DNA of 31,952 nucleotides, from the NCBI GenBank assembly GCA_041745535.1, contig JBGTIS010000298.1, positions 1 to 31,952 on the forward strand. The letters are read 5' to 3'. How positions within the stretch are numbered: the stretch's first letter is position 1; every line of letters starts with the position of its first letter. Below the pieces are notes generated by a model. It was not told where the DNA came from and did no database searches. It saw only the letters and a list, made by a program, of their open reading frames with translations. Of the stretch, positions 10,211 to 26,727 are shown piece by piece. A program made the position numbers and the translations under genes. Origin of the DNA: Cyclobacteriaceae bacterium (GTDB taxonomy: Bacteria > Bacteroidota > Bacteroidia > Cytophagales > Cyclobacteriaceae).

Positions 10211-10268
10211 CGCTCCGTCCTTCAGGGCGGAGCAATAAATGCCCAAATAGGGAGAGGGCTTTAGCCCT
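10211..10268. repeat. REP-like palindromic element cluster, left flank of the RAYT
   Basis: The 20-mer CTCCGTCCTTCAGGGCGGAG at 10212-10232 is the reverse complement, with one mismatch, of the copy at 10743-10762. A hairpin AGGGCT-tt-AGCCCT sits at 10255-10268. Confidence 0.6.
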
Positions 10269-10689
10269 TTTCAAACTCATATTTGCTGATAAATTCTTCA
10301 TATTCTTCCTGAAAGCCTTTCTTTGTATGATGGGCTTCCTGGTTACGAATATATCGCCTTACCACCTCAACCTGTGAATGACTTACCGAAGCCGCGAAAT
10401 ATTCACCCTGCCAGCCAAACTTTGTTTGGGTCAGTTTGTTTTTGTTGATCCAAAAAGAAGATTCACCTTTTAGTAAATTGGCGATGGTAGCTATATTTTG
10501 ATCCGAATTAATGGACAGTAAACAATGTACATGCTCAACATACCCGTTGATATGGTCCAGATGAATTCCCTTACCCTGAGCATATTCTTTGATGTGTTGA
10601 AAAACCTTATACCTGATACTTTTGGTCAGATAAGGCTTTCTGTCTTTGGTCGTCCAAACCATGTGTATCCAGATTTTTATATATGGCAT
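10261..10689 (-). CDS. REP-associated tyrosine transposase (RAYT), IS200/IS605-like Y1 transposase
   Basis: 142 aa. The HuH motif is present (YVEHVHCLL). The motif WQGEYFAASV carries a catalytic-Tyr candidate. The overall MPYIKIWIHMVWTTKDRKPYL start is typical of TnpA_REP / PF01797 proteins. The gene sits directly between inverted REP-like palindromes. Confidence 0.8.
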   Translation of the reverse strand: MPYIKIWIHMVWTTKDRKPYLTKSIRYKVFQHIKEYAQGKGIHLDHINGYVEHVHCLLSINSDQNIATIANLLKGESSFWINKNKLTQTKFGWQGEYFAASVSHSQVEVVRRYIRNQEAHHTKKGFQEEYEEFISKYEFEKG

Positions 10690-10706: not shown

Positions 10707-10794
10707 AGGGCTAAAGCCCTAAGTTCTTTTGATCTTTCTTAACTCCGCCCTGAAGGACAGAGTTACTTACCAGATTTTAAAAGGCTAAAGCCAT
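10707..10794. repeat. REP-like palindromic element cluster, right flank of the RAYT
   Basis: AGGGCT-aa-AGCCCT hairpin at 10707-10720. The 20-mer CTCCGCCCTGAAGGACAGAG at 10743-10762 is an inverted copy of 10212-10232. A third small hairpin GGCT-aa-AGCC sits at 10783-10792. Confidence 0.6.
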
Positions 10795-11064: not shown

Positions 11065-11844
11065 TTATTTCATCCTTTCCAGCAATTCCTTCATTTGGCT
11101 TTCCAAAACGGCTACCCGCTCTTCCAGCATTACTGGAGGCTTTAACAGGGTACTGAAATATCCTTCTACTTTCCACAGTTCCAACAGGTCTTTTGGCTGA
11201 ATTTCCAGGGGGTTGGCCACCGCGTTATCCGCTTTAAATTCCCAGGTTTTGCGTTTGGTCGCCAGCCGCCTTACATAAATATCAGTTGGGGTAACTGCCA
11301 CACACACATCTCCGATTTCCAGGGTTTTGGCTTCTCCCACCGAAACCGGGGAGCATGAAAGGATGTCTCCGGCATGCAATCCTTGCCCGTTGAACTCCAT
11401 GGCATTGTCCTGCACCTCAAAAGCGCGCGACTTTTTGTGTCGGGTATGCGGCAAACGAATGCAGGGCAGCTTATTGATAAAGTCTTTATTCAGGTAATTC
11501 ACAATATATTCCAGGTAAATTTCCTTGTTGACCAGCGGCGTATCTTCCTGGCTTTCATCTGTGTCGGTTTTCCGGACTGTCGCAGGCTGACTCTCCTTGA
11601 ATTCTTTATTAAAGATATCGAATTTATAGAGTTCGTTCACGGTAAGCTCTTTGGTTAGCAGCACATCTACCGATAAGCCAAAATAATTGGCTATTTTTAT
11701 GATAGTGTCTGTTTTTGGTTCAGCCCTTCCTTCTTCATAAGCCCCTACACTGGGCCGGGCTAATCCAAACATTTCAGCAAAATCAGCCTGACTGATCTTC
11801 TTTACCGTTCTTATTTTTCTGATATTTTTCCCTATCAATGACAT
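11065..11844 (-). CDS. XRE-family HTH transcriptional regulator with a C-terminal S24 (LexA/cI-like) peptidase-fold domain; the catalytic dyad appears substituted
   Basis: The N-terminal HTH is IRKIRTVKKISQADFAEMFGLARPSVGAYEEGRAEP..IIKIANYFGLSVDVLL, which is XRE / PF01381-like. The C-terminal region FEVQDNAMEF..GLHAGDILSC...IYVRRLATK aligns by eye to the LexA segments VSGMSMKD..GDLLAV...VKRLKK, but the nucleophile Ser is Ala (DNAM) and the general-base Lys appears to be Ala (RLAT). The gene is divergent from the PspA-flotillin-AAA cluster. Confidence 0.7.
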   Translation of the reverse strand: MSLIGKNIRKIRTVKKISQADFAEMFGLARPSVGAYEEGRAEPKTDTIIKIANYFGLSVDVLLTKELTVNELYKFDIFNKEFKESQPATVRKTDTDESQEDTPLVNKEIYLEYIVNYLNKDFINKLPCIRLPHTRHKKSRAFEVQDNAMEFNGQGLHAGDILSCSPVSVGEAKTLEIGDVCVAVTPTDIYVRRLATKRKTWEFKADNAVANPLEIQPKDLLELWKVEGYFSTLLKPPVMLEERVAVLESQMKELLERMK

Positions 11845-11993
11845 TTTATAAAAAAATTTTAGCTAAAAATTTGAGCAATGCTAACTTTTTTAGTAAACTT
11901 ACGTAAATAATTCTTAACCGAAAACAAAATTGAATTAATTATCCCAAATTGAAGTAAATATTCTTTTAGAAAAAATTTAAACGATCAACTATC

Positions 11994-12413
11994 ATGAACC
12001 AATCATTTGCCAAGGTAAAAGATTATCTCCTGGAGCTGGATTACACCATGGTGTACGAAAGTGAAAAAGAAGGCGTGTTTATCATTGAAAATGAAGAGAT
12101 GGGCATCAGTAAAATGGTGGTAGGCTGTGCCGACCCCCTACTGATTATCGAACAGTATATTTTCGATATCCGGGAGCCCTCTATGGAAATTTATCAAAAG
12201 CTGCTGCAAAAAAACCGTGATATTATTCATGGCGCTTTTGTACTCGACGAATCAGGCCGAAAGGTGATATTCCGTGATACACTGCAAATTGAAAATCTGG
12301 ACCTGAACGAACTGGAAGCCTCCTTTAACTCTTTAGGACTATTATTAAGCGAGTATTCCGACGAAATTATCAGGTTTAGCAAGCAGCATGCGCTTAAACA
12401 TATACATTCATAA
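11994..12413 (+). CDS. YbjN/YjfI-like protein (T3SS-chaperone-like fold), first gene of the PspA cluster
   Basis: 139-aa acidic protein. The N-terminal pattern (VKDYLLELDYTMVYESEKEGVFIIENEEMGIS..VVGCADPLLIIEQ) resembles the YbjN family (PF10722). Its position immediately upstream of a PspA homologue mirrors the E. coli yjfI-yjfJ arrangement. The assignment is pattern-based, not from a search. Confidence 0.45.
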   Translation: MNQSFAKVKDYLLELDYTMVYESEKEGVFIIENEEMGISKMVVGCADPLLIIEQYIFDIREPSMEIYQKLLQKNRDIIHGAFVLDESGRKVIFRDTLQIENLDLNELEASFNSLGLLLSEYSDEIIRFSKQHALKHIHS

Positions 12414-12469
12414 AACAACTTTACCCAATATTTATCAATTAAAATTCATTAACTTAAAATATTATAACA

Positions 12470-13186
12470 ATGAACATTTTCAGTAGATTTTTCAAAATAG
12501 GACAGGCAGAAACTCATGCGGTGATTGATCAGCTTGAAAACCCAATCAGGATGACCGAGCAGGGTATCCGCGATATGAAAGTGGATCTGGATAAAAGCTT
12601 ACAGGCATTGGCCGAAGTAAAAGCCATGACCATTCGCGCTAAAAACGATACCCATACTTATCAGCACCAGGTAACCGATTATGAAAAGAAAGCGATTTTA
12701 TTACTAAAAAAAGCAGAAGCCGGAGAAATGGAAAGTACAGAAGCCGACCGCCTCGCTACTGAAGCCCTGACCAAAAAAGAACAGGCACAGCAGCAGGTAA
12801 GCAGACTTACCGAAGAGTATAAAAAATACGAAGCTTCGGTACAACAATTGGAGAGCAACATCAGAACGTTGCGAAGCAACATCAGCAAATGGGAAAACGA
12901 ACTTCGTACGCTGACGGCCCGGATGAAAGTGAGCTCTGCTACCAAAACCATGAACAAGCAACTGGCAAAAATTGATTCTTCCAGTACGGTTTCTATGCTG
13001 GAAAGAATGAAGGAGAAAGTAGAGCAGGAAGAAGCGCTGGCTGCCTCTTATGGTGAAATTGCCAACGAAAGCAAATCGGTAGATGAAGAGATCGACAAAG
13101 CCCTGGATCATAAACCAGGACAGGCTTCTAAAAGTCTGGAAGACCTGAAAAAACGGATGGGTCTGTCTCAGAATCCAGCTGAATAA
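12470..13186 (+). CDS. pspA: PspA/IM30 (Vipp1/LiaH) family protein, a bacterial ESCRT-III homologue
   Basis: 238 aa. The N-terminus MNIFSRFFKIGQAETHAVIDQLENPIRMTEQGIRDMKVDLDKSLQALAEVKA is the canonical PspA/IM30 start (amphipathic helix plus the 'dpe.ml.q.ir.m...l...r.a.a...a' pattern). It is followed by a long heptad coiled coil. Confidence 0.85.
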   Translation: MNIFSRFFKIGQAETHAVIDQLENPIRMTEQGIRDMKVDLDKSLQALAEVKAMTIRAKNDTHTYQHQVTDYEKKAILLLKKAEAGEMESTEADRLATEALTKKEQAQQQVSRLTEEYKKYEASVQQLESNIRTLRSNISKWENELRTLTARMKVSSATKTMNKQLAKIDSSSTVSMLERMKEKVEQEEALAASYGEIANESKSVDEEIDKALDHKPGQASKSLEDLKKRMGLSQNPAE

Positions 13187-13273
13187 TACCATAGAACCGG
13201 TATGATCTGATCCATCAGGTCATAGCCGGTTCCATCCCGGCGGGGTACGCTAATAATAATAAATAGCACACAG

Positions 13274-13906
13274 ATGAAAGAATTGCTTAACGCCGCCGTT
13301 TCCGCTCCTAATCTGCTTCCCACAGCACTGCTCGTGTTTGTGCTGGTATACTGGATCGTGGTAATTCTGGGAGCCATTGACCTGGATTTTATCGACCTCG
13401 ATCTGGAATTGGGCGAAACCGAGGCAGACGGCGTGGCGGAAGGTGAGTTTTCAGCTGCCTGGCTCAACGCAGTATTGTCGTTTTTCAACTTGGGCCAGGT
13501 TCCTTTCATGGTGTTTTTAACATTTCTGATTATCCCGATCTGGGTAATCTCGGTAATGGGCAACTATTACCTCGACAATACTTCATTCGGCATATCAATG
13601 CTATTATTCATGCCCAATCTGGTAATCAGTTTGTTTATCGCCAAATTCCTGACCATGCCGTTCATCGGATTATTCCGAACCATGGATCAGGAAACAGGCG
13701 AAACAATGATTGGAAAAATTTGTACCGTTACCTCAACCGTAAGCAGCGGTAAGGTAGGACAGGCAAAGGTGAAAACCACCGGCGCTCCGCTTTTGCTTAA
13801 TGTGCTTACCTATAATGAGGTAACCTTACAACACGGCGATACGGGTATTGTAATCGATCGTCGGAAGGACCGCAATATTTATTTTATTGAACCCTATATA
13901 AATTAA
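13274..13906 (+). CDS. YqiJ/NfeD-like inner-membrane protein with a C-terminal OB-fold
   Basis: 210 aa. It has several TM helices (LLPTALLVFVLVYWIVVILGAI; VPFMVFLTFLIIPIWVISVM; ISMLLFMPNLVISLFIAKFL) followed by a C-terminal beta-rich segment, GKICTVTSTVSSGKVGQAKVKTTGAPLLLNV..GDTGIVIDR, which is typical of NfeD/YqiJ OB-folds. It is 8 nt upstream of, and presumably coupled to, the flotillin gene. This mirrors yqiJ-yqiK and nfeD-floT. Confidence 0.65.
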   Translation: MKELLNAAVSAPNLLPTALLVFVLVYWIVVILGAIDLDFIDLDLELGETEADGVAEGEFSAAWLNAVLSFFNLGQVPFMVFLTFLIIPIWVISVMGNYYLDNTSFGISMLLFMPNLVISLFIAKFLTMPFIGLFRTMDQETGETMIGKICTVTSTVSSGKVGQAKVKTTGAPLLLNVLTYNEVTLQHGDTGIVIDRRKDRNIYFIEPYIN

Positions 13907-13914
13907 TACTCATC

Positions 13915-16080
13915 ATGGAAATGTCTATGCTCTGGGCTCTGATCATTATTGGAGCCGTTCTCACGATAGGTTTGCTATCGCTGATCATCAAAATGTATAA
14001 CAAGGCCGTACAGGGAGAAGCCCTGGTACGCACAGGATTGGGCGATGTGAAAATTTCGTTCTCCGGACTTTTCGTCGTGCCTATTCTTCACAAAATGGAG
14101 GTGATGGACATTACGGTAAAAACCATCGTGATTTCCAGAATGAGCGAAGATGGGTTAATTTGTAAAGATAATATGCGTGCCGATATCAAGGTTACTTTCT
14201 TTATCAGGGTTAATAAAACCATAGAGGATGTGGTACACGTAGCGCAGTCGATTGGTTGTAAACGCGCTTCCGACCATGAACAACTGGAAATTCTGTTCGA
14301 TGCCAAATTCTCTGAAGCCTTAAAAACGGTGGGAAAACACTTTGAATTTGTTGAATTATATAACTCCCGCAGAGAGTTTAAAGAAAGAATTCTGGATGAA
14401 ATCGGCACCGACCTGAACGGTTACGTACTGGACGATTGCGCCATCGATTACCTGGAGCAAACCCCGATTACTTCGCTGAACGAACATAATATTCTGGATG
14501 CGGAAGGTATCAAGAAGATTATTGACCTTACTGCCCAGCAAAAAGTGCAGTCTAACCTGATAGAGAACGAAAAGCGGAAAACTCTGAAAAAACAGGATGT
14601 GGAAGCACAGGAAACCATACTGGAACTGGAAAGGCAACTGGCCGAAACCGAAGAAAAACAACGTCGTGAAATTGCCAACATCAAGGCGCGCGAACTGGCC
14701 GAAACCGAAAAAGTACAGCAGGAAGAGCGGCTAAAAAGCGAAAAAGCCCGCATAGCCACCGAAGAAGAAATCGGCATTGCCGAACAGAATAAAGAACGGC
14801 AGGTACTGGTAGCCCAAAAAAATAAAGAACGTACCGATGCCGTAGAAACCGAGCGCGTACAACAGGCCAAAATGCTGGAAGCCACCGAAAAAGAGCGTAT
14901 TGTGGAACTGGCACAGATCGCGAAAGAAAAATCGCTGGAAGAAGAGAGAAAGAATATACAGGAAGTAATTCGCGAGCGGGTTGTGGTAGAAAAAGCTACC
15001 GTAATAGAAGAGGAGAAAATTAAAGACACCAAGGCCATGGCTGAGGCAGAGCGAAGCAAGCAGGTAGCGCTGGTTAATGCCGCACGGGATGCGGAAGAAG
15101 CGTTGGTGAAAGAAATAAAAGCCGCTGAGGCCGCCAAACAAGCTTCTGAGTTCAAAGCCAAGCAGGTAATGATTGACGCCGAAGCTGAAAAATCTTCTTC
15201 CGAACATCGGGCGCAGGCCATCAAGACCATGGCCGAAGCCGAAGCTTCTCAAAAGGCTGCACTCGGTTTGGCCGAAGCGCAGGTAATGGAAGCCAAAGCC
15301 CTGGCTCGTGAAAAAGAAGGGCAATCTGAAGCCAAAGTCATTGAAATGAAAGCGGAAGCAGAAGCGGAAGGGATTAAAGTTACCTCCGGCGCACAGGCCG
15401 AAGCCGATGAAAAACTGGGTTTTGTAGCCGCCCGGGTAAATCGTGAAAAAGGATTGGCCGAAGCGGAAGTGGTAGAAGTGAAAGCCGCGGCCGAACAGAA
15501 AAAAGGCATAGCCGAAGCCAAAGTGATGCGCGAGAAATTCAGTGCCGACGCACAGGGTGTGAAAGAAAAAGCCCAGGCCATGCAGGCGTTGGACGGTGTT
15601 GGCAAAGAGCACGAAGAATTCAAGCTGCGACTGGAAAAAGATAAAGTAATCGCGCTGGCCGATATCAATATTCAGAAAGATATCGCGGAAGCACAGGCCA
15701 AAGTAATTGCCGAAGCATTGAAATCTGCTAACATTGAAATTATTGGTGGCGAAACCATGCTGTTTGAGCAAATTATGGGGTCTATTACCAAAGGCAAAGC
15801 CATCGATAAAATGCTGGGCAACAGCGCCGTATTAACCGATGTGAAAAATGCCTTTTTCAATACCAATGGCGGATCTTCTTTCAAAGATAATCTGCACAAG
15901 TTCATCGATCAGTTCGGCATCAGTTCAGAGGATGTGAAAAACCTATCGGTTTCAGCCCTGATTATGAAAATGATGGGAACCACCCAAAGCCAGGATATAA
16001 AACAAAACCTGGGGCAATTGCTGAATGTGGCCAAAGCCGCTGGCATTGCCGATGAGCCGGCCAGAAAGATTCAGATATAA
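13915..16080 (+). CDS. Flotillin-like SPFH/Band-7 protein (YqiK/FloT type) with an extended E/A/K-rich coiled-coil region
   Basis: 721 aa. An N-terminal TM anchor (LWALIIIGAVLTIGLLSLII) is followed by the SPFH domain (GEALVRTGLGDVKISFSGLFVVPILHKMEVMDITVKTIVI...DIKVTFFIRV). About 450 residues of EA/K-rich heptads follow (AEAEA, EAEKV, AKQVMIDAEAEK), then a C-terminal globular tail. Confidence 0.85.
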   Translation: MEMSMLWALIIIGAVLTIGLLSLIIKMYNKAVQGEALVRTGLGDVKISFSGLFVVPILHKMEVMDITVKTIVISRMSEDGLICKDNMRADIKVTFFIRVNKTIEDVVHVAQSIGCKRASDHEQLEILFDAKFSEALKTVGKHFEFVELYNSRREFKERILDEIGTDLNGYVLDDCAIDYLEQTPITSLNEHNILDAEGIKKIIDLTAQQKVQSNLIENEKRKTLKKQDVEAQETILELERQLAETEEKQRREIANIKARELAETEKVQQEERLKSEKARIATEEEIGIAEQNKERQVLVAQKNKERTDAVETERVQQAKMLEATEKERIVELAQIAKEKSLEEERKNIQEVIRERVVVEKATVIEEEKIKDTKAMAEAERSKQVALVNAARDAEEALVKEIKAAEAAKQASEFKAKQVMIDAEAEKSSSEHRAQAIKTMAEAEASQKAALGLAEAQVMEAKALAREKEGQSEAKVIEMKAEAEAEGIKVTSGAQAEADEKLGFVAARVNREKGLAEAEVVEVKAAAEQKKGIAEAKVMREKFSADAQGVKEKAQAMQALDGVGKEHEEFKLRLEKDKVIALADINIQKDIAEAQAKVIAEALKSANIEIIGGETMLFEQIMGSITKGKAIDKMLGNSAVLTDVKNAFFNTNGGSSFKDNLHKFIDQFGISSEDVKNLSVSALIMKMMGTTQSQDIKQNLGQLLNVAKAAGIADEPARKIQI

Positions 16081-16191
16081 ACCAGGTAAAAAATATTTCA
16101 TTCCAGGAATAGCCTGTTTTCAGCCGGCTTTACCGGGTGAAGTATTTCTGAACCATTGCTTTATTCAACCAACCATTAAACCAATCCTGCC

Positions 16192-16941
16192 ATGTATGTA
16201 GTCAATGTGTTACTCGGAGCCATATTTTGTATCATAGCTTTTGCGCTTAATAAGTACAATGCCCGGTATGTGCTTTCGGGGTACAATACCCTTTCGGAAG
16301 AGGAAAGAAAACAATTTGATCTGAAAAATTATCTCAGGTTTTTTAAAAGGTTTTTTCTTACCGTTGGTATGGCTATTATGGTTGGCTTTTTTCTGCTCGA
16401 TCAGTTGGTAGACACAAAAATCGCTACCGCATTTACGGTACTATTTCCATTGATCGCGCTCTTTTATTTCATGATCAGCAGTAGCCGGTTTAACCATAAT
16501 CCGCCAGAAAAGAAGAAGTCAATAGCTCTGATTATATCATTTATCATTATCGGCATTTCCATTATTGGGTCTACTACCTTATTGGTTGGAAGTATTCTGG
16601 ATAACAAAATTACTTTCGAGGAAAAAGCTACCAGCATATCAGGCTTTTATGGAGAAGATATTCCTTACCTCAATATTATTTACCTGGATACTGTGAACAC
16701 ACTTCCCGCCATTAGTTACCGTGCTAATGGCATTGCATTGGGGAGTAGCTGCCTGAAAGGATATTTCAAAACCCGGGATCGAAATACGGTAAAGCTGCTG
16801 ATTAATGAGGACAAACCACCTTATATTCAGCTCAAAACCAATAACGATCAGTCTATCTTTTTCAATGCCAGCAACCCGGAACAAACTAAGTCTATTTACG
16901 ATAAACTGCGGGAACGCGTGATGTATATGTCTGTGAAATAA
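16192..16941 (+). CDS. Membrane protein with an N-terminal DUF3784-like TM domain and a C-terminal soluble domain
   Basis: 249 aa. The N-terminal TM helices and the GYNTLSEEERKQFD motif are characteristic of DUF3784 (PF12650), recalled from memory. About 110 additional residues follow two more TM helices. The gene ends 18 nt before the giant ATPase gene. Confidence 0.5.
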   Translation: MYVVNVLLGAIFCIIAFALNKYNARYVLSGYNTLSEEERKQFDLKNYLRFFKRFFLTVGMAIMVGFFLLDQLVDTKIATAFTVLFPLIALFYFMISSSRFNHNPPEKKKSIALIISFIIIGISIIGSTTLLVGSILDNKITFEEKATSISGFYGEDIPYLNIIYLDTVNTLPAISYRANGIALGSSCLKGYFKTRDRNTVKLLINEDKPPYIQLKTNNDQSIFFNASNPEQTKSIYDKLRERVMYMSVK

Positions 16942-16959
16942 GAAATTTAAATTAAAACA

Positions 16960-19900
16960 ATGCCTGAAAATATGCCTGTTGTTGATGCTGGTCTAACCCA
17001 TGAAAAAGTAAAGCTGGAAGGTGGTTCGTACGAAATATTACAAAACCGTTTGAACCAACAGCGTGAAAAGCTTTTTGCTCAATTGGAAAAGCTGAATCAG
17101 TCGCGTAAAGAGGTTTTTGGTGCTATCGAAACCCAACTGATTGCTACCGAGCGTATTTCTACCGATCATAATTGCATTCCCTATGATATGGTGCCGGTAG
17201 GGCAACAGTTTATTTTTGGCTATAATGTGCATTTAGGCTTAAAATCGGAAATAGAACTTTCGGATGTTTTTAGTATGTATGAATATCAGGATCGTAGTTT
17301 CTACCGCCTTTCCCTGGAGCTAATCGAGAATGCTGATTTCGTCCGCGATTTCCAAAAATTGTATAAGTATTACAAGCATACGCGGTTTTCCCGATTTACC
17401 ACAGCAGGCCCTTACCTGTATATGATTTTTCAGGTAGGAAAAAGCGCATCCGATATCAAAGCTTTCAAATGGGGTATTAAAAGCAATACTTTACAATACC
17501 TGGACGATCGCAGCGATCATGAAATTACATTTCCGGCGCAACACGAATTTACCTGGAAAAGAACTACCCGCGATGACCAGCGGGAAGGGAAATTCCCGCA
17601 TATTTCTATTGAAAACCGCGTGTTTGTAGAAACTATTGGTGGTGACCTGACCATTAAGGTTGAGGATAATACCGATGAAGGGCAAGGCATTTATACAGAG
17701 CCTGTAGATGAAAAAGACCAAACCCTGGACGATGCTGAAATCTACTATGTTATTCTGGATCATATCATTCTATTGAAAATCAAACCCTACCAGGAAAAAG
17801 ACTTCCGGTTCCTGGCCTATAATGAGAAGCTTCGGACAGTCCGCCGGATTGATGCCATCAAACATGCCTGCCTGCTGCTACCCGACGATCAGGGTATTAT
17901 TTTTTCTGAAGGGTATTACCTGCAAACCGGTGAGTTCAAGCAGTTTGAAAGCCGGTTGGAAACCCGGTTGGAAACCCTGGTTTATGAGAAAAAAGTAACC
18001 TCACCCAATGGTGAAGATTTTCTCTATGTTTTCTATAACCAGCAAAACGGAGTGTATCTGTTGCTTCCTTATAACCTGATTGAGCAAACTGTAAAAAACC
18101 CGATCGTTTGCCATGGTTATGCCATTTTTGAGAATGGTGAACTTTGCTATTTCAATGCCGATAATGAACCCAAAAAGCACCATGCCATCCGCATCTGGCA
18201 AACCCCGTTTACCGGACCCGATTTTAAACTGGAAAGTCATGGCGAATCGTATCTGTTTAAAATCGGCAACAAAGATATTGTACGGGCGATGGCCGAATGC
18301 AATGCCATCAATTCGCTTATTCAGAAAGGCGATCAGTATCAGGACTTATATGCCGATTTGCGTAAAGAGGCAACCTCTATTCTGGACAGTTACCATTGGC
18401 TAAATCACGCTGATGCTTTTTTACTGAGCGAACCTTTAAAAGCCATTCACGAAACCGCTACCGCAGCCATTGACGAATTTGAGAAAGTCCGGAAAATTAG
18501 AAAAAACACCGAGGATCAGGTAAAAGAGGTAACGCAGGAAGCCGACGCACTGATTAATTCATTGAAAAGGGAAAAGCCGGCCCATATTTATGATTTTGTG
18601 AACCTGCTGTCCCGGCTTCGGGAACTATTGGGGAAAGTGCTTTCGCTCAAAGAATTGCGGTATGTAGATATAGCACTGGTAGAAAATTACGAGCAGAAAC
18701 TTAATGAAAACACCCGCGAAGTTTCGCGCCAATGTGTACAATTTCTTTTGCGGGAAAAAGCCCTGGAGCCATACCATCAGCAGGTTCAGGAATTAGATAC
18801 TTCCGTAGAAAAAGTAACCAAAGTAGTGGAAGCTCACCAAGTTGAAACTGAAACAGATAAAACCAGTGCGGAACTGGAAATGCTGATGGAAACGGTGAGC
18901 AACCTTGAAATTGAAGATGCCACAGAAACTACCCGCATCATCGATGCTATTTCGGCTATTTTTTCTTCTTTAAATAAAGTAAAAGCCAGCCTGAAACGGA
19001 AAAGACAGGAATTACTGACCCAGGAAGGAAAAGCGGTTTTTATTGCCCAATCCAAACTTATTCAGCAGGCGCTGGTCAATTACCTGGATATTTCCGATAC
19101 GCCGGAAAAGTGCGATGAATATGCCGCCAAACTGCTGGTACAACTGGAAGAACTGGAAGGCAAATTTTCTGAGTTTGAAGCGTTTTCCGAAAAAATAGCA
19201 GCCCAGCGCTACGAAGTGTATAATGCCTTTGAAGCTAAAAAAGTTTTACTGATTGAAACCAAAAACAAGCGGGCCAACCTGTTGTTGCAATCTGCCAATA
19301 GGGTTATCAAATCCATTCAGAGCCGTGTCAACAGTTTTAAAGACGTAAGTGAGCTCAATGGTTATTTCGCTGCCGATTTTATGGTGAATAAAATCAGGGA
19401 AATCGCGCGGGAACTGCTTACCCTGGGCGATACGGTAAAAGCTGATGATATACAGAGCAGACTCAAAACCACCCGGGAAGATGCCGTGCGGCAACTGAAA
19501 GATAAGGCCGAACTCTTCGTGAACGGAGCCGGCATTATTCGCTTTGGTAATTTCCAGTTTTCGGTCAATACAAGTGCATTGGGCATTACCACCGTTGTTA
19601 AAGACGAGCAGATGTATTTCCATCTTACGGGCACCAATTTCTATGAGCTGGTCAGTGATCCCGAAATTACAGCCCACCGGGTATTGTGGAATCAGCACCT
19701 GGTTTCTGAAAATCAGCAGGTATACAGGGCCGAATACCTGGCTTTTAAAATACTGGAAGCAGGCGGAAAGCGGTTCAATACCGCAGATGGCAACCATTTA
19801 AGTACAAAAGAATTGAATAACCTGCCGGAAAAAGAATTGCTGCAATATGTACAGCAGTTTATGGCCGTTCGCTATCAGGAAGGATACATCAAAGGCGTAC

Positions 19901-21900
19901 ACGATTTTGATGCTTCACTGATACTGAAAGGTCTGGTGGAAATTCTGACCACAGCTGGCTTGCTTCGGTATACGGCAGAAACTCGTGCCTGTGCCACGCT
20001 GTTCTGGAAAACCTTTTCGCGGGAAGATCAGAAACAGCTTTTTGACGATCAGATCAAAGGTGCTGGCGCTATTTTAACAGCTTTTCCGGAAAGCGATGAG
20101 TTTGATAATTTACTGGCAGCTTTACAGAAAGAGCTTGTGAATTTTGTCAGGGAAACCGGTTTATTTTCCGAAACCAGTGTGCCTCAGGCGGCGACTTACC
20201 TGTTTCACGAACTTACCCATGATAACGATTTTGTAACCGACCAGCAGGCAGTTACCATTGCGGAAGCCTTTTCAAAACATATCAAAGAAACCAAAAGTAA
20301 GGAAGCTTTTGACAATTCCATATCCCGGTTCAAAAATCATCCGGTATTACAATTTAATTTGGTCCGAAAGTGGATCAGGTCGTTTTTAAAGCAAACCAGG
20401 CAGGCAGCACAGCTTGAGTATGCCGATGAAGCCAGTGTGTTGCTTTTTTATGGTGATCCTGATCCCGCACATAAAGTAGCCATCGCGCAAAGTCATGAAA
20501 TACCAGCCTTGCGGGGTACGCATGCCGTTATTGTGGAAGGGAAATACCAACTCCACCTCCATCAGTTTATGGATAAACTCCAGCAATACGATGCGCTAAC
20601 GGTACCTGCTTTCAACCGCTTTTCTGAATTGAAGAAAGCACTTACCCAGCAGTTTGAAGCCGACCTAAGGCTTAACGAATTAAAACCGATCGTGATGTCG
20701 TCTTTTGTGCGTAACAAACTGATTGACAAAATTTATTTACCTTTGATTGGTGCCAACCTGGCAAAGCAGATAGGGACTGCCGGTGAAAACAAGCGCACCG
20801 ACCGCATGGGCATGCTGATGTTGATATCGCCGCCGGGGTATGGCAAAACCACCCTGATGGAGTACATTGCCCACCGGCTGGGCATCGTGTTTGTGAAAAT
20901 TAACGGGCCGGCCATCGGGCATAAAGTTACTTCCGTTGATCCGGCAGAAGCTACCAATGCGGCTGCACGGGAGGAACTGGAAAAGCTGAACCTGGCTTTT
21001 GAAATGGGCGACAATGTAATGATTTATGTAGACGATATCCAGCATTGTAACCCTGAATTTATGCAAAAATTTATTTCCCTCTGCGATGCGCAGCGCAAAA
21101 TTGAGGGCGTATACAAAGGGAAAAGCCGAACGTATGATTTTCGTGGCAAAAAGGTTTGTGTGGTAATGGCCGGGAACCCCTATACTGAAAGCGGTGAGAA
21201 ATTCCAGGTTCCGGATATGCTTTCCAATCGTGCCGATATTTACAACCTGGGCGATATTATTGGCGATTCCGCCCATGAATTTAAGCTCAGTTACCTGGAA
21301 AATGCCCTCACTTCCAATCCGGTGTTGCATCAGCTGGCCGGAAAAAGTCAGAAAGACCTGTACACGTTCGCGGATATTGCCGCTACGGGTATGCACGACG
21401 GCATCGACTTTGAAACCAATTATTCGCCAGAAGAAATCAGCGAATATGTGGCGGTACTTAAAAAGCTGCTGGTGGTACGCGACACCGTATTGGCGGTAAA
21501 CAGCGAATACATTCGGTCGGCCGGTCAGGCTGATATGTACCGCACCGAGCCTGCTTTCAAACTGCAGGGTTCTTACCGCGACATGAATAAGCTTGCCGAA
21601 AAAGTAATGCCTTTGATGAATGAGAAAGAGCTGCAAACGCTAATCATGACACACTATGAAAACGAAGCCCAAACCCTAACCACGGGTGCCGAGGCCAATC
21701 TGCTGAAGTTCAAAGAAATGACAAAGCAGATGACCGATAATGAAAAAACACGGTGGACTCAGATTAAAAACATATTTGCCGAGCAACAGCAAATGAAAGG
21801 CTACGGCGAGCACCAGGTAGGGCAGGCCATCGCCAAAATAGGAAACACACTGGTACAAAGTCTGGAAGGCATTAAAGAGGCTTTAAACAAAGAGAAGTAG
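16960..21900 (+). CDS. Giant (1646-aa) protein: an N-terminal ~1250 residues of unknown, mostly helical or coiled-coil sequence plus a single C-terminal MoxR/AAA_5-like AAA+ ATPase module
   Basis: Uninterrupted 4.9-kb ORF. The Walker A motif is LISPPGYGKTTLMEY (~aa 1290). The Walker B-like motif is MIYVDDIQHCNPEF, which is DD rather than DE. The sensor-1 region is VCVVMAGNPYTESGEKF (compare MoxR ATQNP.E.G). The motif VPDMLSNRADIY matches the MoxR LLDRF. No second P-loop exists anywhere in the protein. The N-terminal 1250 aa have no motif I can recognise. Confidence 0.8.
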   Translation: MPENMPVVDAGLTHEKVKLEGGSYEILQNRLNQQREKLFAQLEKLNQSRKEVFGAIETQLIATERISTDHNCIPYDMVPVGQQFIFGYNVHLGLKSEIELSDVFSMYEYQDRSFYRLSLELIENADFVRDFQKLYKYYKHTRFSRFTTAGPYLYMIFQVGKSASDIKAFKWGIKSNTLQYLDDRSDHEITFPAQHEFTWKRTTRDDQREGKFPHISIENRVFVETIGGDLTIKVEDNTDEGQGIYTEPVDEKDQTLDDAEIYYVILDHIILLKIKPYQEKDFRFLAYNEKLRTVRRIDAIKHACLLLPDDQGIIFSEGYYLQTGEFKQFESRLETRLETLVYEKKVTSPNGEDFLYVFYNQQNGVYLLLPYNLIEQTVKNPIVCHGYAIFENGELCYFNADNEPKKHHAIRIWQTPFTGPDFKLESHGESYLFKIGNKDIVRAMAECNAINSLIQKGDQYQDLYADLRKEATSILDSYHWLNHADAFLLSEPLKAIHETATAAIDEFEKVRKIRKNTEDQVKEVTQEADALINSLKREKPAHIYDFVNLLSRLRELLGKVLSLKELRYVDIALVENYEQKLNENTREVSRQCVQFLLREKALEPYHQQVQELDTSVEKVTKVVEAHQVETETDKTSAELEMLMETVSNLEIEDATETTRIIDAISAIFSSLNKVKASLKRKRQELLTQEGKAVFIAQSKLIQQALVNYLDISDTPEKCDEYAAKLLVQLEELEGKFSEFEAFSEKIAAQRYEVYNAFEAKKVLLIETKNKRANLLLQSANRVIKSIQSRVNSFKDVSELNGYFAADFMVNKIREIARELLTLGDTVKADDIQSRLKTTREDAVRQLKDKAELFVNGAGIIRFGNFQFSVNTSALGITTVVKDEQMYFHLTGTNFYELVSDPEITAHRVLWNQHLVSENQQVYRAEYLAFKILEAGGKRFNTADGNHLSTKELNNLPEKELLQYVQQFMAVRYQEGYIKGVHDFDASLILKGLVEILTTAGLLRYTAETRACATLFWKTFSREDQKQLFDDQIKGAGAILTAFPESDEFDNLLAALQKELVNFVRETGLFSETSVPQAATYLFHELTHDNDFVTDQQAVTIAEAFSKHIKETKSKEAFDNSISRFKNHPVLQFNLVRKWIRSFLKQTRQAAQLEYADEASVLLFYGDPDPAHKVAIAQSHEIPALRGTHAVIVEGKYQLHLHQFMDKLQQYDALTVPAFNRFSELKKALTQQFEADLRLNELKPIVMSSFVRNKLIDKIYLPLIGANLAKQIGTAGENKRTDRMGMLMLISPPGYGKTTLMEYIAHRLGIVFVKINGPAIGHKVTSVDPAEATNAAAREELEKLNLAFEMGDNVMIYVDDIQHCNPEFMQKFISLCDAQRKIEGVYKGKSRTYDFRGKKVCVVMAGNPYTESGEKFQVPDMLSNRADIYNLGDIIGDSAHEFKLSYLENALTSNPVLHQLAGKSQKDLYTFADIAATGMHDGIDFETNYSPEEISEYVAVLKKLLVVRDTVLAVNSEYIRSAGQADMYRTEPAFKLQGSYRDMNKLAEKVMPLMNEKELQTLIMTHYENEAQTLTTGAEANLLKFKEMTKQMTDNEKTRWTQIKNIFAEQQQMKGYGEHQVGQAIAKIGNTLVQSLEGIKEALNKEK

Positions 21901-22083
21901 CCTTTTCGAATGCTGCCAAAAATTAAATGCATGCATCACGCCCCGCTTAAGAATTGATTTATTGGGTACAGAACGATACATTAGCGCAAAGTCTGGATGG
22001 TATTAAAGAGGCTTTGAATGAAGGAAAATAAGATTTCCAATTTGTGCCGTAGTTAAATTTTTGTTCAATTAAAAAGTGAAAAT

Positions 22084-22662
22084 ATGGCGATACCATATTA
22101 TTTAGTAGACAATGCCCTTACAGAAAACCCCAATGATTTTCGGGGTGTGTTGGGGCTGAAGGGGGTTAAAACAGAGCTGGACATTGTTGTCAGGATTCTG
22201 AAAAACAATGTGGGTATCTCAGAGGCGGAGATTCTGGCGGTGTTAAAGCAGGAGCAGAGTGCCATTAAGGAATTTCTGGAAGATGGGTACAAAGTAGATG
22301 CCGGGCTGTTTGCCATTAAGCCTACCATGAAGGGAGTGTTCGATAGCGCGAAAGAAATTTTTACGGATGAAAAACATGCCTTACGATTCAGAATAGCCCC
22401 GCGGAAAGCACTGAAGGCAATTTTGAAAAATATTTCTCTGGTTAAAGTAGTGAATGGCGGAGTACGTCCTGTGATTACCGTTTTTGAGGATATGATCAGC
22501 AAAACCAACGACGACACCATTACCCCCGGAAAAACCGCCAAACTGTTTGGCGACAAGCTAAAGTTTGACGTGGAAGATGTGGAGCAGGGCATTTTCTTTA
22601 TTAAAGATAAGTATAAGGATAATTCAAATAGGAAGCATAAAAAAGGAATCATTTCTTGGTGA
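22084..22662 (+). CDS. HU-HIG-like (HU-fold) N-terminal domain protein with a DUF4469-like C-terminal domain
   Basis: 192 aa. The N-terminal pattern MAIPYYLVDNALTENPNDFRGVL....ELDIVVRILKNNVGISEAEILAVLKQEQSAIKEFLEDGYKVDAGLFAIKPTMKGVF resembles the Bacteroidota-specific HU-like 'HU-HIG' family. The C-terminal half (VITVFEDMISKTND.TITPGKTAKLFGDKLKFD) resembles the DUF4469 partner domain. It is the last co-directional gene after the giant ATPase. Confidence 0.5.
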   Translation: MAIPYYLVDNALTENPNDFRGVLGLKGVKTELDIVVRILKNNVGISEAEILAVLKQEQSAIKEFLEDGYKVDAGLFAIKPTMKGVFDSAKEIFTDEKHALRFRIAPRKALKAILKNISLVKVVNGGVRPVITVFEDMISKTNDDTITPGKTAKLFGDKLKFDVEDVEQGIFFIKDKYKDNSNRKHKKGIISW

Positions 22663-22911
22663 TCTATTTGATTTTTAATGAATAGAAAATACTTAGTCAA
22701 ATTTTCAAAAATAAAAATAGCGGCATCCAACAATGAAGAAGGGATAAAAAATTTTTATCTGACCTGGCGCTAAATTTAAGCTCTCATTCATCGAGTCTGT
22801 GAGCTCACTACATTTTGTCTAACCCCGTACCTGAAGGTATCCCCCATCATTTTTTAATGGTCAGTAAATCATACTTGCTGCTATTCCTTGCTGATGCTTG
22901 CAATTAATTGC

Positions 22912-24030
22912 AACTAAGTACTAAGACAAATTTAGTTTAAATCATGTAATTTTGTTCAAAAAAAGGTATGGGCAAAATCCGAGTCATAGAATTAACAGAG
23001 GCACAACGCTTAGCATTAGAAAAAGGCTATCAGCAAGGGAGAACTCACTTTTTCCGTCAATTGTGCCAGATGGTGCTTCTTAAAAGCCAAAGACGCTCTT
23101 CAAAAGAACTAGGAGCTATCATAGGTAAATGTGAGCAAACAGTGAATAGCTGGTTAGATCGTTGGGAGAGGGAAGGCATTACTGGTTTGCAAATCAAGCC
23201 GGGCCGGGGTGCTAAGCCTAAAATAGATCAACAAAAGGATATGGAAAAGGTCAAACAAGTGGTTAAAGGGAACCGACAACGCCTATCATTAGCCAAAGCT
23301 GAATTGGAAGTAATGCTTAACAAAAAGTTTAGTACCAAAACATTAAATCGCTTTGTAAAAAAAATGGTGGACGATTCAAACGCATTAGACGAGCTTTAAA
23401 AGGAAAACCCTTAGCTGAGGTATATGCGCTAAAGAAGGCATATTTATTTGAGATAGAACAATTAGCTGAAAAACAATGGATTGATTTATATTATGGCGAT
23501 GAAACACAAGTAAGCCTGACGCCTTGCGTGCCCTATGGCCGCGTCGGCGGTCCGATGGCAATTTTCTGACGAGCAAGTCCTCATGCCTACGGCAAAAGGA
23601 GGTAAACTCAACTGTTTTGGGCTTATATCCCGACGGAATCACTTAATCTGCAAGACTACCAGTCAATCTATTGACAGTGAATTTATTGTCCAACAAATGG
23701 AAACCTTATCCTTGAAAATTAACAAACCAACCGTTGTAGTGTTAGATAACGCGCAACCGCACACTGCTCATAAAGTCAAAGCAAGCTTCCAAGTTTGGCA
23801 AAATCGGGGCTTATATATCTTTTATCTGCCCACTTACTCTCCACAACTTAATATCGCTGAAACCCTGTGGAGAAAGCTTAAATATGAATGGCTTAGGCCA
23901 GAAGATTATCAATCAGAGGAAAATTTAGCCTATGCTGTTAATCGTGCTTTTGCTGCTGTGGGTTCTTTACTTAGTATTCAGTTTTCCCCTTTTAATTTAA
24001 ACTAATTATGTGCAGGTACTTAGTAGCAAG
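22912..24030 (+). mobile_element. IS630 (Tc1/mariner-like) family insertion sequence, degenerate copy; boundaries approximate
   Basis: The transposase reading frames are listed separately as a pseudogene. Putative imperfect terminal inverted repeats share the core ACTAAGTAC / GTACTTAGT, at ~22912-22927 (AACTAAGTACTAAGAC) and ~24014-24030 (GTACTTAGTAGCAAGT). Confidence 0.55.
22968..24005 (+). pseudogene. IS630-family DDE transposase disrupted by two frameshifts
   Basis: ORF1 (22968-23399, frame 0) encodes the HTH/winged-helix N-terminus (LTEAQRLALEKGYQQGRTHFFRQLCQ...NSWLDRWEREGITGL). A middle segment is open only in frame 2 (23402-23569) and carries the first catalytic D region (LFEIEQLAEKQWIDLYYGDETQVSL). 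ORF2 (23535-24005, frame 0 again) carries the rest of the DDE_3 domain (VVVLDNAQPHTAHKV...LYIFYLPTYSPQLNIAETLW). Two frame changes are needed to join the three pieces. Confidence 0.75.
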
Positions 24031-24102
24031 TAAGCCATATTTTAGGACAAATATCCAGCAAAAGAGTATTTGATAATTTTATCATAAAGTCCTAAAGACT
24101 TG

Positions 24103-24936: not shown

Positions 24937-26727
24937 TTATTCAGCTACGCATTTTAACTGAATCCAAAAAGTACTTCCTTCACCTTCTTTGGAATGCAGT
25001 CCAATACCACCGCCCATCGCTTCAATAAATTCCTTTGAAATAGCTAACCCAAGCCCTGTACCTTCACTGTTATTATCGGATATACGGGTAAACTTATGGA
25101 ATATCCGTTGCTGGTCGACAACTGCTATGCCCCTTCCTTTGTCAATTACGGCAATTTTTATATATTGATCTTCAGTCTGAGCGGTGATAAGGATGGTGCC
25201 ATGTTCGGGCGAATATCGGATGGCATTGGTTAGAAAATTATTCAGTACCCAGACTGTCTTATGCGGATCTGCAAGGATTTCAGAAAGATCTGGTTCAATG
25301 TCCATTTCAAGTGTCAGGTGTTTATCTTCCAAGAAAGGTAACACCCCTTCTCTGGCTTTTTTTACGATAGACTTTGGAGAAACGTACTCTGTACGGATGT
25401 CGATCAAACCACTTTCTATTTTTGATAGATCGAGGATCTCAGTGATCGTTCTTTTAATTCTGCCAACATTAGCGTCAATGGTCTTTATCAGCTTCTTTTG
25501 TTCCTTGCTGAGTTGACCTACTTTATGATTGCCAATAAGATTGGTGCTTAATTCAATAGCTGCTACAGGTGTCTTAAGTTCATGGGAAAGGGATGCGATG
25601 AATTTTGTTTTGGCTTCGTCTTTTTCAGCAAAGTCTGTGATGTCTGAAAGAATGATCACGTGCCCTATTAATATTTCCCGGCTTTCTCCTGTAGGTTGAG
25701 CCGATACATTAACGATATTTTTTGCAAACAGTCTTTCTTTATTTCCATCAACAATTTTCAGCGGGTGATATTCTTTAGCTTCCCAAGACTCAAAGCTGAT
25801 TATCAGTTCGCTAATCATGGCATTCATTAATTTATTGTGTACAGCTACATCCGGAGCATACCGATGGAGCAGTTGCTCAAGGGGTAAACCTAACAATCTC
25901 AGTGCACGATCATTGGCAAAAATAATTCTTTTAGATTCATCCAGGCCAACAATTGCCTCTGACATCTGATTGATGATTGTTTCAATCAATTTTTTCTCAC
26001 TCAGCAGTTTTGCCAAATTGCTATGTTCGTATTCGTCCAACTTGGCGGCCATATGATTAAAAGAGGCGGCCAATTGTCCGAATTCATCTTTTGCTTTGAT
26101 ATGCAGTTTAGTTCTATAATTGCCTTGAGCGATCTCCTGAATAGCTTTGTTAAATTTGATGATAGGCCGGGAAATATAAACCGGAATACCCACTACGAAT
26201 ACCAAACCAATGATGATACTGGCAATACCGATTAAAGTCATGTATAATACTACTTTATCAGCTGTATCATTGGCACGAGCATTTTTTCGAACAATGGCTT
26301 CCTGGTTTACCGCATATATCTGATCAATTTGTTTGAGTAGCTGAAATATTTCCGTATGCAAGGCTGCTTTATTATCCAGTTGGTTAACCAGTGCCGCGAA
26401 ATCAGAGAGCAACTGATCGGAAAGTTGTTGTTCGCCAGACTCAGTGACATTTTGCAATTGTAATTGTATGTTTTCTTCAAACAATGCGACGGCCTGCTGT
26501 ACCAATGGAATTTGCAAAGAAAGTGAATCCTTTGCCTGGATATACAGAAGGACATCCATTGACTGATCCAGTTTTTCCATATACCCCAGCGTACGGTAAT
26601 TGTCTTCAATAATGGCATGCGAATCATTGGCCAGCCAACGAAGGTAATAGCTCCCTACTCCCCCCAAAAGCAGAATTACTAAAAAGAGAAAAGCAATGGC
26701 TAAGGTGAGTTTTAGTCTCAGTTTCAT
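24937..26727 (-). CDS. Sensor histidine kinase (TM-periplasmic sensor-TM-HAMP-PAS-HisKA-HATPase_c), NtrB/AtoS/ZraS-like partner of the sigma54 regulator
   Basis: 596 aa. TM1 is LTLAIAFLFLVILLLGGVGSYYL. A ~150-aa periplasmic region follows, then TM2 VVLYMTLIGIASIIIGLVFVVGIPVYI. The HAMP domain is KFNKAIQEIAQGNYRTKLHIKAKDEFGQLAASFNHMAAKL. The H-box is IASLSHELKTPVAAI. The N/G boxes are NAIRYS, DKGRGI and GTGLGLAISKEFIEAMGG. Confidence 0.85.
   Translation of the reverse strand: MKLRLKLTLAIAFLFLVILLLGGVGSYYLRWLANDSHAIIEDNYRTLGYMEKLDQSMDVLLYIQAKDSLSLQIPLVQQAVALFEENIQLQLQNVTESGEQQLSDQLLSDFAALVNQLDNKAALHTEIFQLLKQIDQIYAVNQEAIVRKNARANDTADKVVLYMTLIGIASIIIGLVFVVGIPVYISRPIIKFNKAIQEIAQGNYRTKLHIKAKDEFGQLAASFNHMAAKLDEYEHSNLAKLLSEKKLIETIINQMSEAIVGLDESKRIIFANDRALRLLGLPLEQLLHRYAPDVAVHNKLMNAMISELIISFESWEAKEYHPLKIVDGNKERLFAKNIVNVSAQPTGESREILIGHVIILSDITDFAEKDEAKTKFIASLSHELKTPVAAIELSTNLIGNHKVGQLSKEQKKLIKTIDANVGRIKRTITEILDLSKIESGLIDIRTEYVSPKSIVKKAREGVLPFLEDKHLTLEMDIEPDLSEILADPHKTVWVLNNFLTNAIRYSPEHGTILITAQTEDQYIKIAVIDKGRGIAVVDQQRIFHKFTRISDNNSEGTGLGLAISKEFIEAMGGGIGLHSKEGEGSTFWIQLKCVAE

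Follow-up and report, generated by a model that had tools for sequence, protein, structure and literature searches.

A Cyclobacteriaceae locus as a further instance of a catalogued operon class combining PspA, a YqiK-type flotillin and a giant AAA+ ATPase

The closest described relatives of the locus reported here come from comparative genomics. In section 19 of Ravi et al. 2024 (PMC11237479; mSystems 9:e00847-23; bioRxiv 2020), an operon is described in which a CesT/Tir-PspA pair is accompanied by further components, including a YqiJ/YuaF protein with three transmembrane helices. The operon class includes a Band-7/flotillin protein and a beta-propeller/coiled-coil/AAA+ protein. For Dokdonia donghaensis (ANH61663.1), Table S3 of the article gives the same architecture as we found, with a divergent cHTH+protease regulator. 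The article also remarks that abbreviated flotillin/YqiJ/AAA+ operons are more widespread. We analyzed a 31,952-nt stretch of DNA from a Cyclobacteriaceae bacterium (GCA_041745535.1, contig JBGTIS010000298.1, positions 1 to 31,952, forward strand), hereafter the window, that carries a locus with this gene order.

The open reading frame (ORF) map of the locus consists of a minus-strand gene at 11065-11844 and seven plus-strand genes between 11994 and 22662, separated by gaps of 56, 87, 8, 111, 18 and 183 nt. Between the divergent regulator and CesT genes lie 149 nt of AT-rich intergenic DNA. These ORF coordinates, gaps and intergenic length reproduced exactly those of a first-pass annotation made from the letters alone, which had proposed an undescribed membrane-remodelling, envelope-stress or defence module. 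The features of the published class are all present: a CesT-like gene upstream of pspA, a YqiJ-flotillin pair, a propeller/coiled-coil AAA+ protein and, 149 nt away, a divergent regulator with a helix-turn-helix (HTH) and an S24 domain. Because section 19 and Table S3 of Ravi et al. hold a matching gene set and order, the word "undescribed" has to be dropped; the locus is a further instance of an operon class already described by comparative genomics in 2020 and 2024. Our best explanation, with a probability of about 0.75, is that it represents, on a chromosome, this catalogued membrane-maintenance operon, which has yet to be characterised by experiment and which consists of two modules. The observation of a compact membrane-scaffold locus is confirmed by the Pfam and profile identities and by the gene linkage given below, whereas its earlier interpretation is supported in part.

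The two modules were defined by a neighbourhood census. One genome per species was scanned, and 80 loci (L001-L080) with homologues of the giant AAA+ protein at 50-62% identity were collected from Bacteroidota, Planctomycetota, Verrucomicrobiota, Desulfobacterota, Calditrichia and Hydrogenedentota. ORFs were called at each locus and searched with the window proteins, with a threshold of E < 1e-5 for the DUF3784 and HU proteins. Flotillin and YqiJ were counted in the 63 loci with at least 3.2 kb of upstream sequence, and PspA in those with at least 7 kb. In 59 of 63 loci (30/33 in Bacteroidota, 29/30 in other phyla), the gene immediately before the giant gene, and co-directional with it, encoded flotillin, a linkage that spans at least six phyla. 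A YqiJ-like gene preceded flotillin in 51/63. Among Bacteroidota loci, 17 of 31 had PspA upstream of this triad; among the 27 others, none did. The divergent regulator was present in 16 loci and the CesT-like gene in 15, where it lies directly upstream of pspA. Across phyla, the giant protein is at least 50% identical and flotillin 48-71% identical.

The core is therefore the series YqiJ-like gene, flotillin gene, giant AAA+ gene, and the block of regulator, CesT and PspA is a Bacteroidota add-on. This pattern agrees with the remark of Ravi et al. on the wider spread of abbreviated operons. Homologues of the giant gene had been expected to sit beside flotillin and PspA genes. For flotillin this was borne out, and the homologues are not scattered, because 59 of 63 loci are linked; for PspA it failed outside Bacteroidota.

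The same counts bear on a different reading, in which two adjacent modules are functionally independent: CesT-PspA would be a regulated stress unit, YqiJ-flotillin-AAA+ would be constitutive, and PspA would not cooperate with the ATPase. The triad occurs without PspA in 27/27 non-Bacteroidota and 14/31 Bacteroidota loci, and in L019 PspA lies downstream on the opposite strand. In the window, the candidate operator lies upstream of CesT-PspA only, and pspA ends 87 nt before the YqiJ-like gene. However, nearly every PspA gene within 10 kb lies immediately upstream on the same strand, in the fixed order regulator / CesT-PspA-YqiJ-flotillin-AAA+, and section 19 of Ravi et al. treats the genes as one operon class. 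We consider this reading unlikely. It still carries some weight, since PspA is missing from most occurrences of the triad.

The breadth of the linkage also bears on anti-phage defence, the alternative that the first-pass annotation had left beside membrane remodelling. In an abortive-infection-like system, the giant ATPase would sense infection and the membrane proteins would be the effectors. Mobile elements lie on both sides of the locus, the giant protein has a STAND-like large size with an ATPase and a repeat domain, and XRE regulators are common beside defence genes; the regulator here gives generic HTH matches to PADLOC control-protein models. In a comparison with PADLOC-DB 2.0, however, four proteins (CesT, YqiJ, flotillin and DUF3784) matched no model. 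A 14.8-bit P-loop match was all that the giant protein gave, and the rest were generic HTH or coiled-coil noise. Across six or more phyla the gene order is fixed, and full-length identity stays at 48-50% or above for flotillin and the giant protein, a pattern that is housekeeping-like and not that of fast-evolving defence genes. The genes surrounding the locus are ordinary chromosomal genes. A defence role is thus highly improbable.

The giant gene (16960-21900, plus strand) was characterized by Pfam, AlphaFold2 (AF2) and alignment. Pfam assigned DUF3686 (8e-188, aa 39-479), DUF7902 (aa 600-684) and a single AAA module (aa 1287-1406) to the 1646-aa product, in keeping with the single C-terminal module seen at first. 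Its family is large, with at least 5812 homologues at E <= 1e-10 among 8000 candidates scored. The AF2 model of aa 1-700 has a mean predicted local distance difference test score (pLDDT) of 82.5. It contains a helix at 21-53, a beta-propeller at 59-414 and helical bundles and coiled coil at 430-700; the helical/coiled-coil region takes in DUF7902 and runs on beyond residue 700. Foldseek matched this N-terminus to generic beta-propellers, including the clathrin terminal domain with its linker and IFT-A, at TM-scores of about 0.2. We do not claim a protocoatomer relationship.

The AAA+ motifs of the giant protein are a Walker A PPGYGKTT at 1291-1298, a Walker B DD at 1358-1359 (IYVDDIQH, not DE), a sensor-1 N1406 and R1424. 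These residues are invariant in an alignment of 10 sequences. The module scored 35.4 bits against Pfam AAA and 27.3 bits against AAA_5, both above the cutoffs; the MoxR-like label that it was first given is neither confirmed nor excluded, and a few homologues are labelled MoxR-like by JGI. Matches of the module in the PDB included VCP, Cdc48, Rix7, Rpt and RuvB, and were limited to about 40 residues around the Walker A/P-loop.

NCBI and UniRef usually name members of the giant-protein family "DNA repair ATPase", after the Pfam description of DUF3686. Taken at face value, this name would make the locus a DNA-damage (SOS-like) regulon in which the giant ATPase is controlled by a LexA-like self-cleaving repressor. 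The S24-like domain of the regulator and the weak P-loop matches to RuvB point the same way. A literature search for DUF3686, PF12458 or "DNA repair ATPase" together with flotillin found no paper, and the name looks like an annotation artefact, because no supporting paper was found and the conserved, indeed obligate, neighbours are membrane proteins. The similarity to RuvB and VCP is limited to the Walker A segment, and the regulator, as described below, has no Ser/Lys dyad, on which RecA-stimulated self-cleavage depends. Among the readings considered, a DNA-damage regulon is the least probable.

The other two core genes encode a YqiJ/YuaF (NfeD-like) membrane protein of 210 aa (13274-13906, plus strand) and a YqiK-type flotillin of 721 aa (13915-16080, plus strand), only 8 nt apart. 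Neither protein had a match in Pfam or NCBIfam. We therefore compared their family profiles by hhalign with those of E. coli yqiJ-yqiK, taken from NC_000913. The 210-aa family matched YqiJ with a probability of 97% (E 1e-10), and the 721-aa family matched YqiK with a probability of 100% (E 2.8e-40, 30% identity, 408 columns) in an alignment that begins at the transmembrane helix and spans the SPFH domain and coiled coil. The NfeD/YqiJ and flotillin labels of the first-pass annotation are right, because the family profiles match E. coli YqiJ and YqiK.

YqiJ_N was matched by 19 of 24 members of the YqiJ-like family, and by the window protein alone only at E 0.16; the family match to the PDB profile of YuaF (2K14) was weak (E 0.53). 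The architecture of the YqiJ-like protein is an N-terminal transmembrane helix, an acidic D-rich linker, two further transmembrane helices and a C-terminal OB-like beta domain. The linker (window 13330-13450, aa ~36-60) is a strongly acidic D-x-D repeat of variable length (DLDFIDLDLELGETEADG...). In some orthologues it reaches about 40 residues of DxDxD, so that its character is conserved and its sequence is not. It could be a cation-binding or electrostatic element.

The flotillin has a transmembrane helix, an SPFH domain, a long Ala/Glu-rich coiled coil and a C-terminal domain, and its homologues are called flotillin or YqiK by NCBI and JGI. Pfam Band_7/Flot matched none of 25 orthologues. 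A PDB profile search with the N-terminal domain of flotillin returned nothing, and the full profile matched only the coiled-coil stretch of QmcA (E 0.0014).

In the Bacteroidota add-on, the first gene (11994-12413, plus strand) encodes a CesT/Tir-like chaperone-fold protein of 139 aa, assigned as a PspA partner by Pfam and gene position. Its main Pfam assignment is CesT_Tir_1 (PF22550, 2.7e-58). The YbjN-like label under which it was first listed does find a match, though a weak one (4e-5). The pspA gene follows after 56 nt (12470-13186, plus strand). Its 238-aa product matched PspA_IM30 (PF04012) over residues 2-229 at 3.6e-45, with 154.7 bits against a gathering cutoff of 33.9, which bears out its identification as a PspA/IM30 protein of the bacterial ESCRT-III family.

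The divergent regulator gene (11065-11844, minus strand) was identified by Pfam (HTH_3 1.7e-12, Peptidase_S24 1.6e-7) and by orthologues that hold the matching divergent position in 16 Bacteroidota loci. An XRE-type HTH spans aa 4-66 of the protein, and a beta domain of the S24/LexA-like kind lies at aa ~134-225. The helix at the C-terminus, LEERVxxLE, is conserved. When the S24 domain was aligned with LexA and UmuD by hhalign (E ~1.5e-5, probability 78-80%), the position of the catalytic Ser (LexA S119, UmuD S60) fell on A147 or E149, which are variable columns across 17 orthologues. The position of the catalytic Lys (LexA K156, UmuD K97) aligned with Arg in the regulator family. Canonical autoproteolysis is unlikely because Ala, Glu or variable residues stand in for Ser, and Arg for Lys. 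Judged from these alignments, the S24-like domain is most likely a non-catalytic module without the Ser/Lys dyad. The first-pass XRE/S24-like assignment holds for both domains, and an active S24 protease is not supported.

Two conserved palindromes lie directly upstream of the start codon of the regulator. P1 (GCTAAAAATTTGAGC, 11862-11876), located by intergenic alignment and pattern search, has the family consensus GCTMAAAnTTTGAGC; it is the single match in the window, where 0.13 are expected. A relaxed P1 pattern occurred in 11 of 80 loci, all 11 of which bear the regulator, and mostly within the regulator/CesT intergenic region. P2 (CTAACTTTTTTAG, 11881-11893, consensus CTAAAAnTTTTAG) is followed by CGTAAA at 11902-11907. 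The P2 and CGTAAA columns (together 11881-11907) were conserved in an alignment of 17 regulator-proximal intergenic regions, and both palindromes align across most regulator-bearing loci. We suggest the P1/P2 pair as a candidate operator of the regulator.

Two further genes had been counted as parts of the module. The gene between those for flotillin and the giant ATPase (16192-16941, plus strand) encodes a 249-aa membrane protein that Pfam identified as DUF3784 (5.4e-15). The last gene (22084-22662, plus strand) encodes a 192-aa HU-fold protein, for which HU-DNA_bdg plus DUF4469 matches upheld the HU fold. If these were working components, the locus would be a previously undescribed eight-gene module, as its co-directional genes and short gaps might suggest. 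No homologue of either was found in the 80 census loci, though, and the operon as given in section 19 and Table S3 of Ravi et al. lacks both. DUF3784 and HU fall outside the conserved unit because none of the 80 loci carries either.

L081 is the closest relative, with a giant protein of 68% identity. Its corresponding slot holds a DUF3784 gene with only 27% identity plus a 23S_rRNA_IVP gene, and L068 has a weak DUF3784-like ORF there, which favors the eight-gene reading. In the next-closest relative, L082, the slot is empty, and both DUF3784 and HU are missing. The nearest database homologues of the window DUF3784 protein are 33-36% identical and lie in unrelated neighbourhoods, between genes for lipoate ligase and THDP succinyltransferase or next to those for SecA and FAD-oxidase, with no flotillin, PspA or giant gene nearby. 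The DUF3784 protein also has an extra C-terminal soluble domain of about 110 aa (aa ~140-249), without a Pfam match, that is common to the in-slot homologue of L081, whose 27% identity extends along the full length.

The slot itself is variable. Of 30 Bacteroidota loci, 19 have more than 300 nt between the flotillin and giant genes, against 2 of 33 in other phyla. The cargo differs, without relation, between Bacteroidota loci: a DUF559 endonuclease (Hymenobacter), a DMP19-like protein, an esterase, DUF3592, lipoproteins and an ABC transporter. Examples are L013:9433-9918, L014:9533-9952, L005:8621-9247, L077:2478-3344 and L031:9232-9750. The flotillin/AAA+ junction is an insertion hotspot in Bacteroidota, whereas the genes are nearly contiguous in other phyla.

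The HU gene is set apart by what precedes it. A 71-nt direct repeat (21847-21917 and 21978-22048, 72% identity) duplicates the 3' end of the giant gene, and the last 17 codons and stop of that gene (TLVQSLEGIKEALNKEK, stop) recur as a fossil (TLAQSLDGIKEALNEGK, stop; 21978-22031, plus strand) in the 183-nt gap before HU. The fossil was seen both as the direct repeat and as a small-ORF translation. It has the look of a scar left by a rearrangement at the operon's 3' boundary. The HU gene lies beyond this scar and adjoins an IS630-type element, which further argues against its membership. We conclude that DUF3784 is a lineage-specific passenger in a variable slot, that the HU-fold gene is an unrelated neighbour, and that neither is a conserved component. 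The Pfam identity of DUF3784 stands, its role as a module component does not, and the HU-HIG protein is likewise withdrawn from the module. An eight-gene module has very little probability left.

Gene linkage and analogy with known systems suggest how the two-module operon might work. In module 1, the ancient core, a YqiJ/NfeD-like protein and a YqiK-type flotillin (SPFH) would form an oligomeric scaffold on the inner membrane, next to a cytoplasmic propeller/coiled-coil/AAA+ protein of about 1650 aa. Module 2, the Bacteroidota add-on upstream of it, would place the CesT/Tir-like and PspA dyad under the divergent XRE-HTH/S24-like repressor. A repressor dimer on the palindromes would silence both divergent promoters and be released by a signal other than LexA-type (RecA-stimulated) self-cleavage. 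PspA, handled by the CesT-like chaperone, would then polymerise on damaged membrane in an ESCRT-III-type repair. The giant ATPase might dock on the polymers through its propeller and coiled coil and remodel or recycle them with ATP, in parallel with Vps4 on ESCRT-III or FtsH with HflK/C; this is in line with a suggestion in the cited part of Ravi et al.

A bolder form of this mechanism can be put forward tentatively, and we hold it to be possible and no better than that. The giant ATPase would be dedicated to flotillin (SPFH) assemblies, which it would remodel or take apart with ATP, and in Bacteroidota it would be coupled to PspA/ESCRT-III polymers. It would be switched on through an S24-like repressor, dead as a protease, that responds to a signal from the membrane and not to DNA damage. 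If this is true, the giant ATPase would serve prokaryotic SPFH scaffolds as a functional counterpart of Vps4. How flotillin scaffolds and PspA polymers get assembled, turned over and energised is an open question in the field, and no ATPase partner is known for most PspA systems. The operon type is an obvious experimental entry point, because a very large and highly conserved AAA+ protein adjoins flotillin in at least six phyla. The analysis also flags the database name "DNA repair ATPase" as without visible support.

Several observations weigh against the membrane-maintenance reading or parts of it. In four loci, the 10 kb upstream of the giant gene contain no flotillin gene. We found no experimental study of any member of the giant-ATPase family, and gene linkage and analogy are what suggest its putative remodelling role. 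A Walker B with DD instead of DE may mean slow or switch-like hydrolysis and not a processive unfoldase. The AF2 model of flotillin, from a 25-sequence alignment, had a mean pLDDT of 55.7 and fell below 50 in the SPFH region, and was unusable. The dyad assignment in the regulator rests on an alignment of moderate confidence (78-80%), though the LexA and UmuD templates agree. Co-transcription gained nothing from a scan for sigma-70-type promoters, where promoter-like sites did not exceed the shuffle expectation and the consensus is uninformative for Bacteroidota promoters, or from a scan for intrinsic terminators, which found none inside the intergenic gaps. The DUF3784 genes in the matching slot of L081 and, weakly, of L068 leave room for a lineage-specific accessory role of this protein.

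Mobile elements flank the locus on both sides, as the first-pass annotation had noted. On the left, a Y1_Tnp (IS200-like) gene identified by Pfam (10261-10689, minus strand) lies between 35-nt inverted arms at 10213-10247 and 10728-10762. Each arm holds a GC-rich hairpin, CTCCGCCCTGAAGGACGGAG, that resembles a repetitive extragenic palindrome (REP) or an IS200 end. The gene may encode either a RAYT, the label first given to it, or an IS200 TnpA. On the right, an IS630-type element (22904-24033) has imperfect terminal inverted repeats of 39 nt as its ends (22904-22942 and 23995-24033). The transposase of the element is broken into an HTH ORF (22968-23399) and a DDE_3 ORF (23535-24005) with 135 nt between them, and because of this split the element is probably degenerate or frameshifted. 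We considered and rejected a composite transposon: the flanking elements belong to different families, each with its own terminal repeats, and the operon is kept in many unrelated chromosomal contexts.

Past IS630, about 2-6 kb downstream of the locus, lie genes for a HAMP/PAS histidine kinase (24937-26727) and a sigma-54 enhancer-binding response regulator (27492-28832), both on the minus strand. Classical psp operons are governed by the sigma-54 activator PspF. No link between this pair and the operon turned up in an analysis that included no dedicated look for one.

The YqiJ-flotillin pair resembles the E. coli yqiJ-yqiK and B. subtilis yuaF-yuaG(floT) operons, in which a YqiJ/NfeD-like membrane protein is likewise followed by flotillin; homology was computed against the E. 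coli proteins. Unlike the locus reported here, both operons are without a giant AAA+ gene, PspA and an XRE regulator. The flotillin of the window is also longer (721 aa versus 553 aa) and escapes Pfam Band_7/Flot. The upstream dyad can be compared with E. coli yjfI-yjfJ (a CesT-like DUF2170 protein and a PspA paralogue), which also pairs a CesT/Tir-superfamily protein with a PspA-family protein. However, the CesT-like subfamily here is PF22550 CesT_Tir_1 with similarity to YbjN, not DUF2170, the dyad is fused to the flotillin triad, and the polyamine genes are absent.

The regulator shares the overall S24 beta-domain with LexA, lambda CI and UmuD, and its N-terminal DNA-binding domain is joined to it as in CI. 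In contrast to these proteins, it has lost the Ser/Lys dyad and carries an extra conserved C-terminal helix. For the giant ATPase, the comparison with Vps4 acting with ESCRT-III and FtsH with HflK/C is a functional analogy only, namely that of an AAA+ ATPase working with an ESCRT-III-family polymer (PspA) or an SPFH cage. Pfam found no MIT or Vps4 domain in the giant protein. It lacks the MIT domain, the protease domain and the transmembrane anchor, and has a beta-propeller and coiled coil as its N-terminus. The giant protein is a member of neither the Vps4 nor the FtsH family.

Compared with the class of Ravi et al., as given in the cited parts of the article, the locus has every conserved component in the same order and on the same strand, including the divergent regulator. 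The parts of the article (PMC11237479) cited here call the regulator domain a protease, whereas the catalytic dyad is missing in the window, and they do not mention the loss of the dyad, the operator palindromes or the DD Walker B. The locus also differs from the class by the DUF3784 gene inserted between flotillin and AAA+ and by the HU/IS630 neighbour, neither of which is conserved. It adds no new kind of system, and provides a clean Bacteroidota example of the class together with a definition of core versus add-on, a candidate operator and evidence for a regulator that would not cleave itself.

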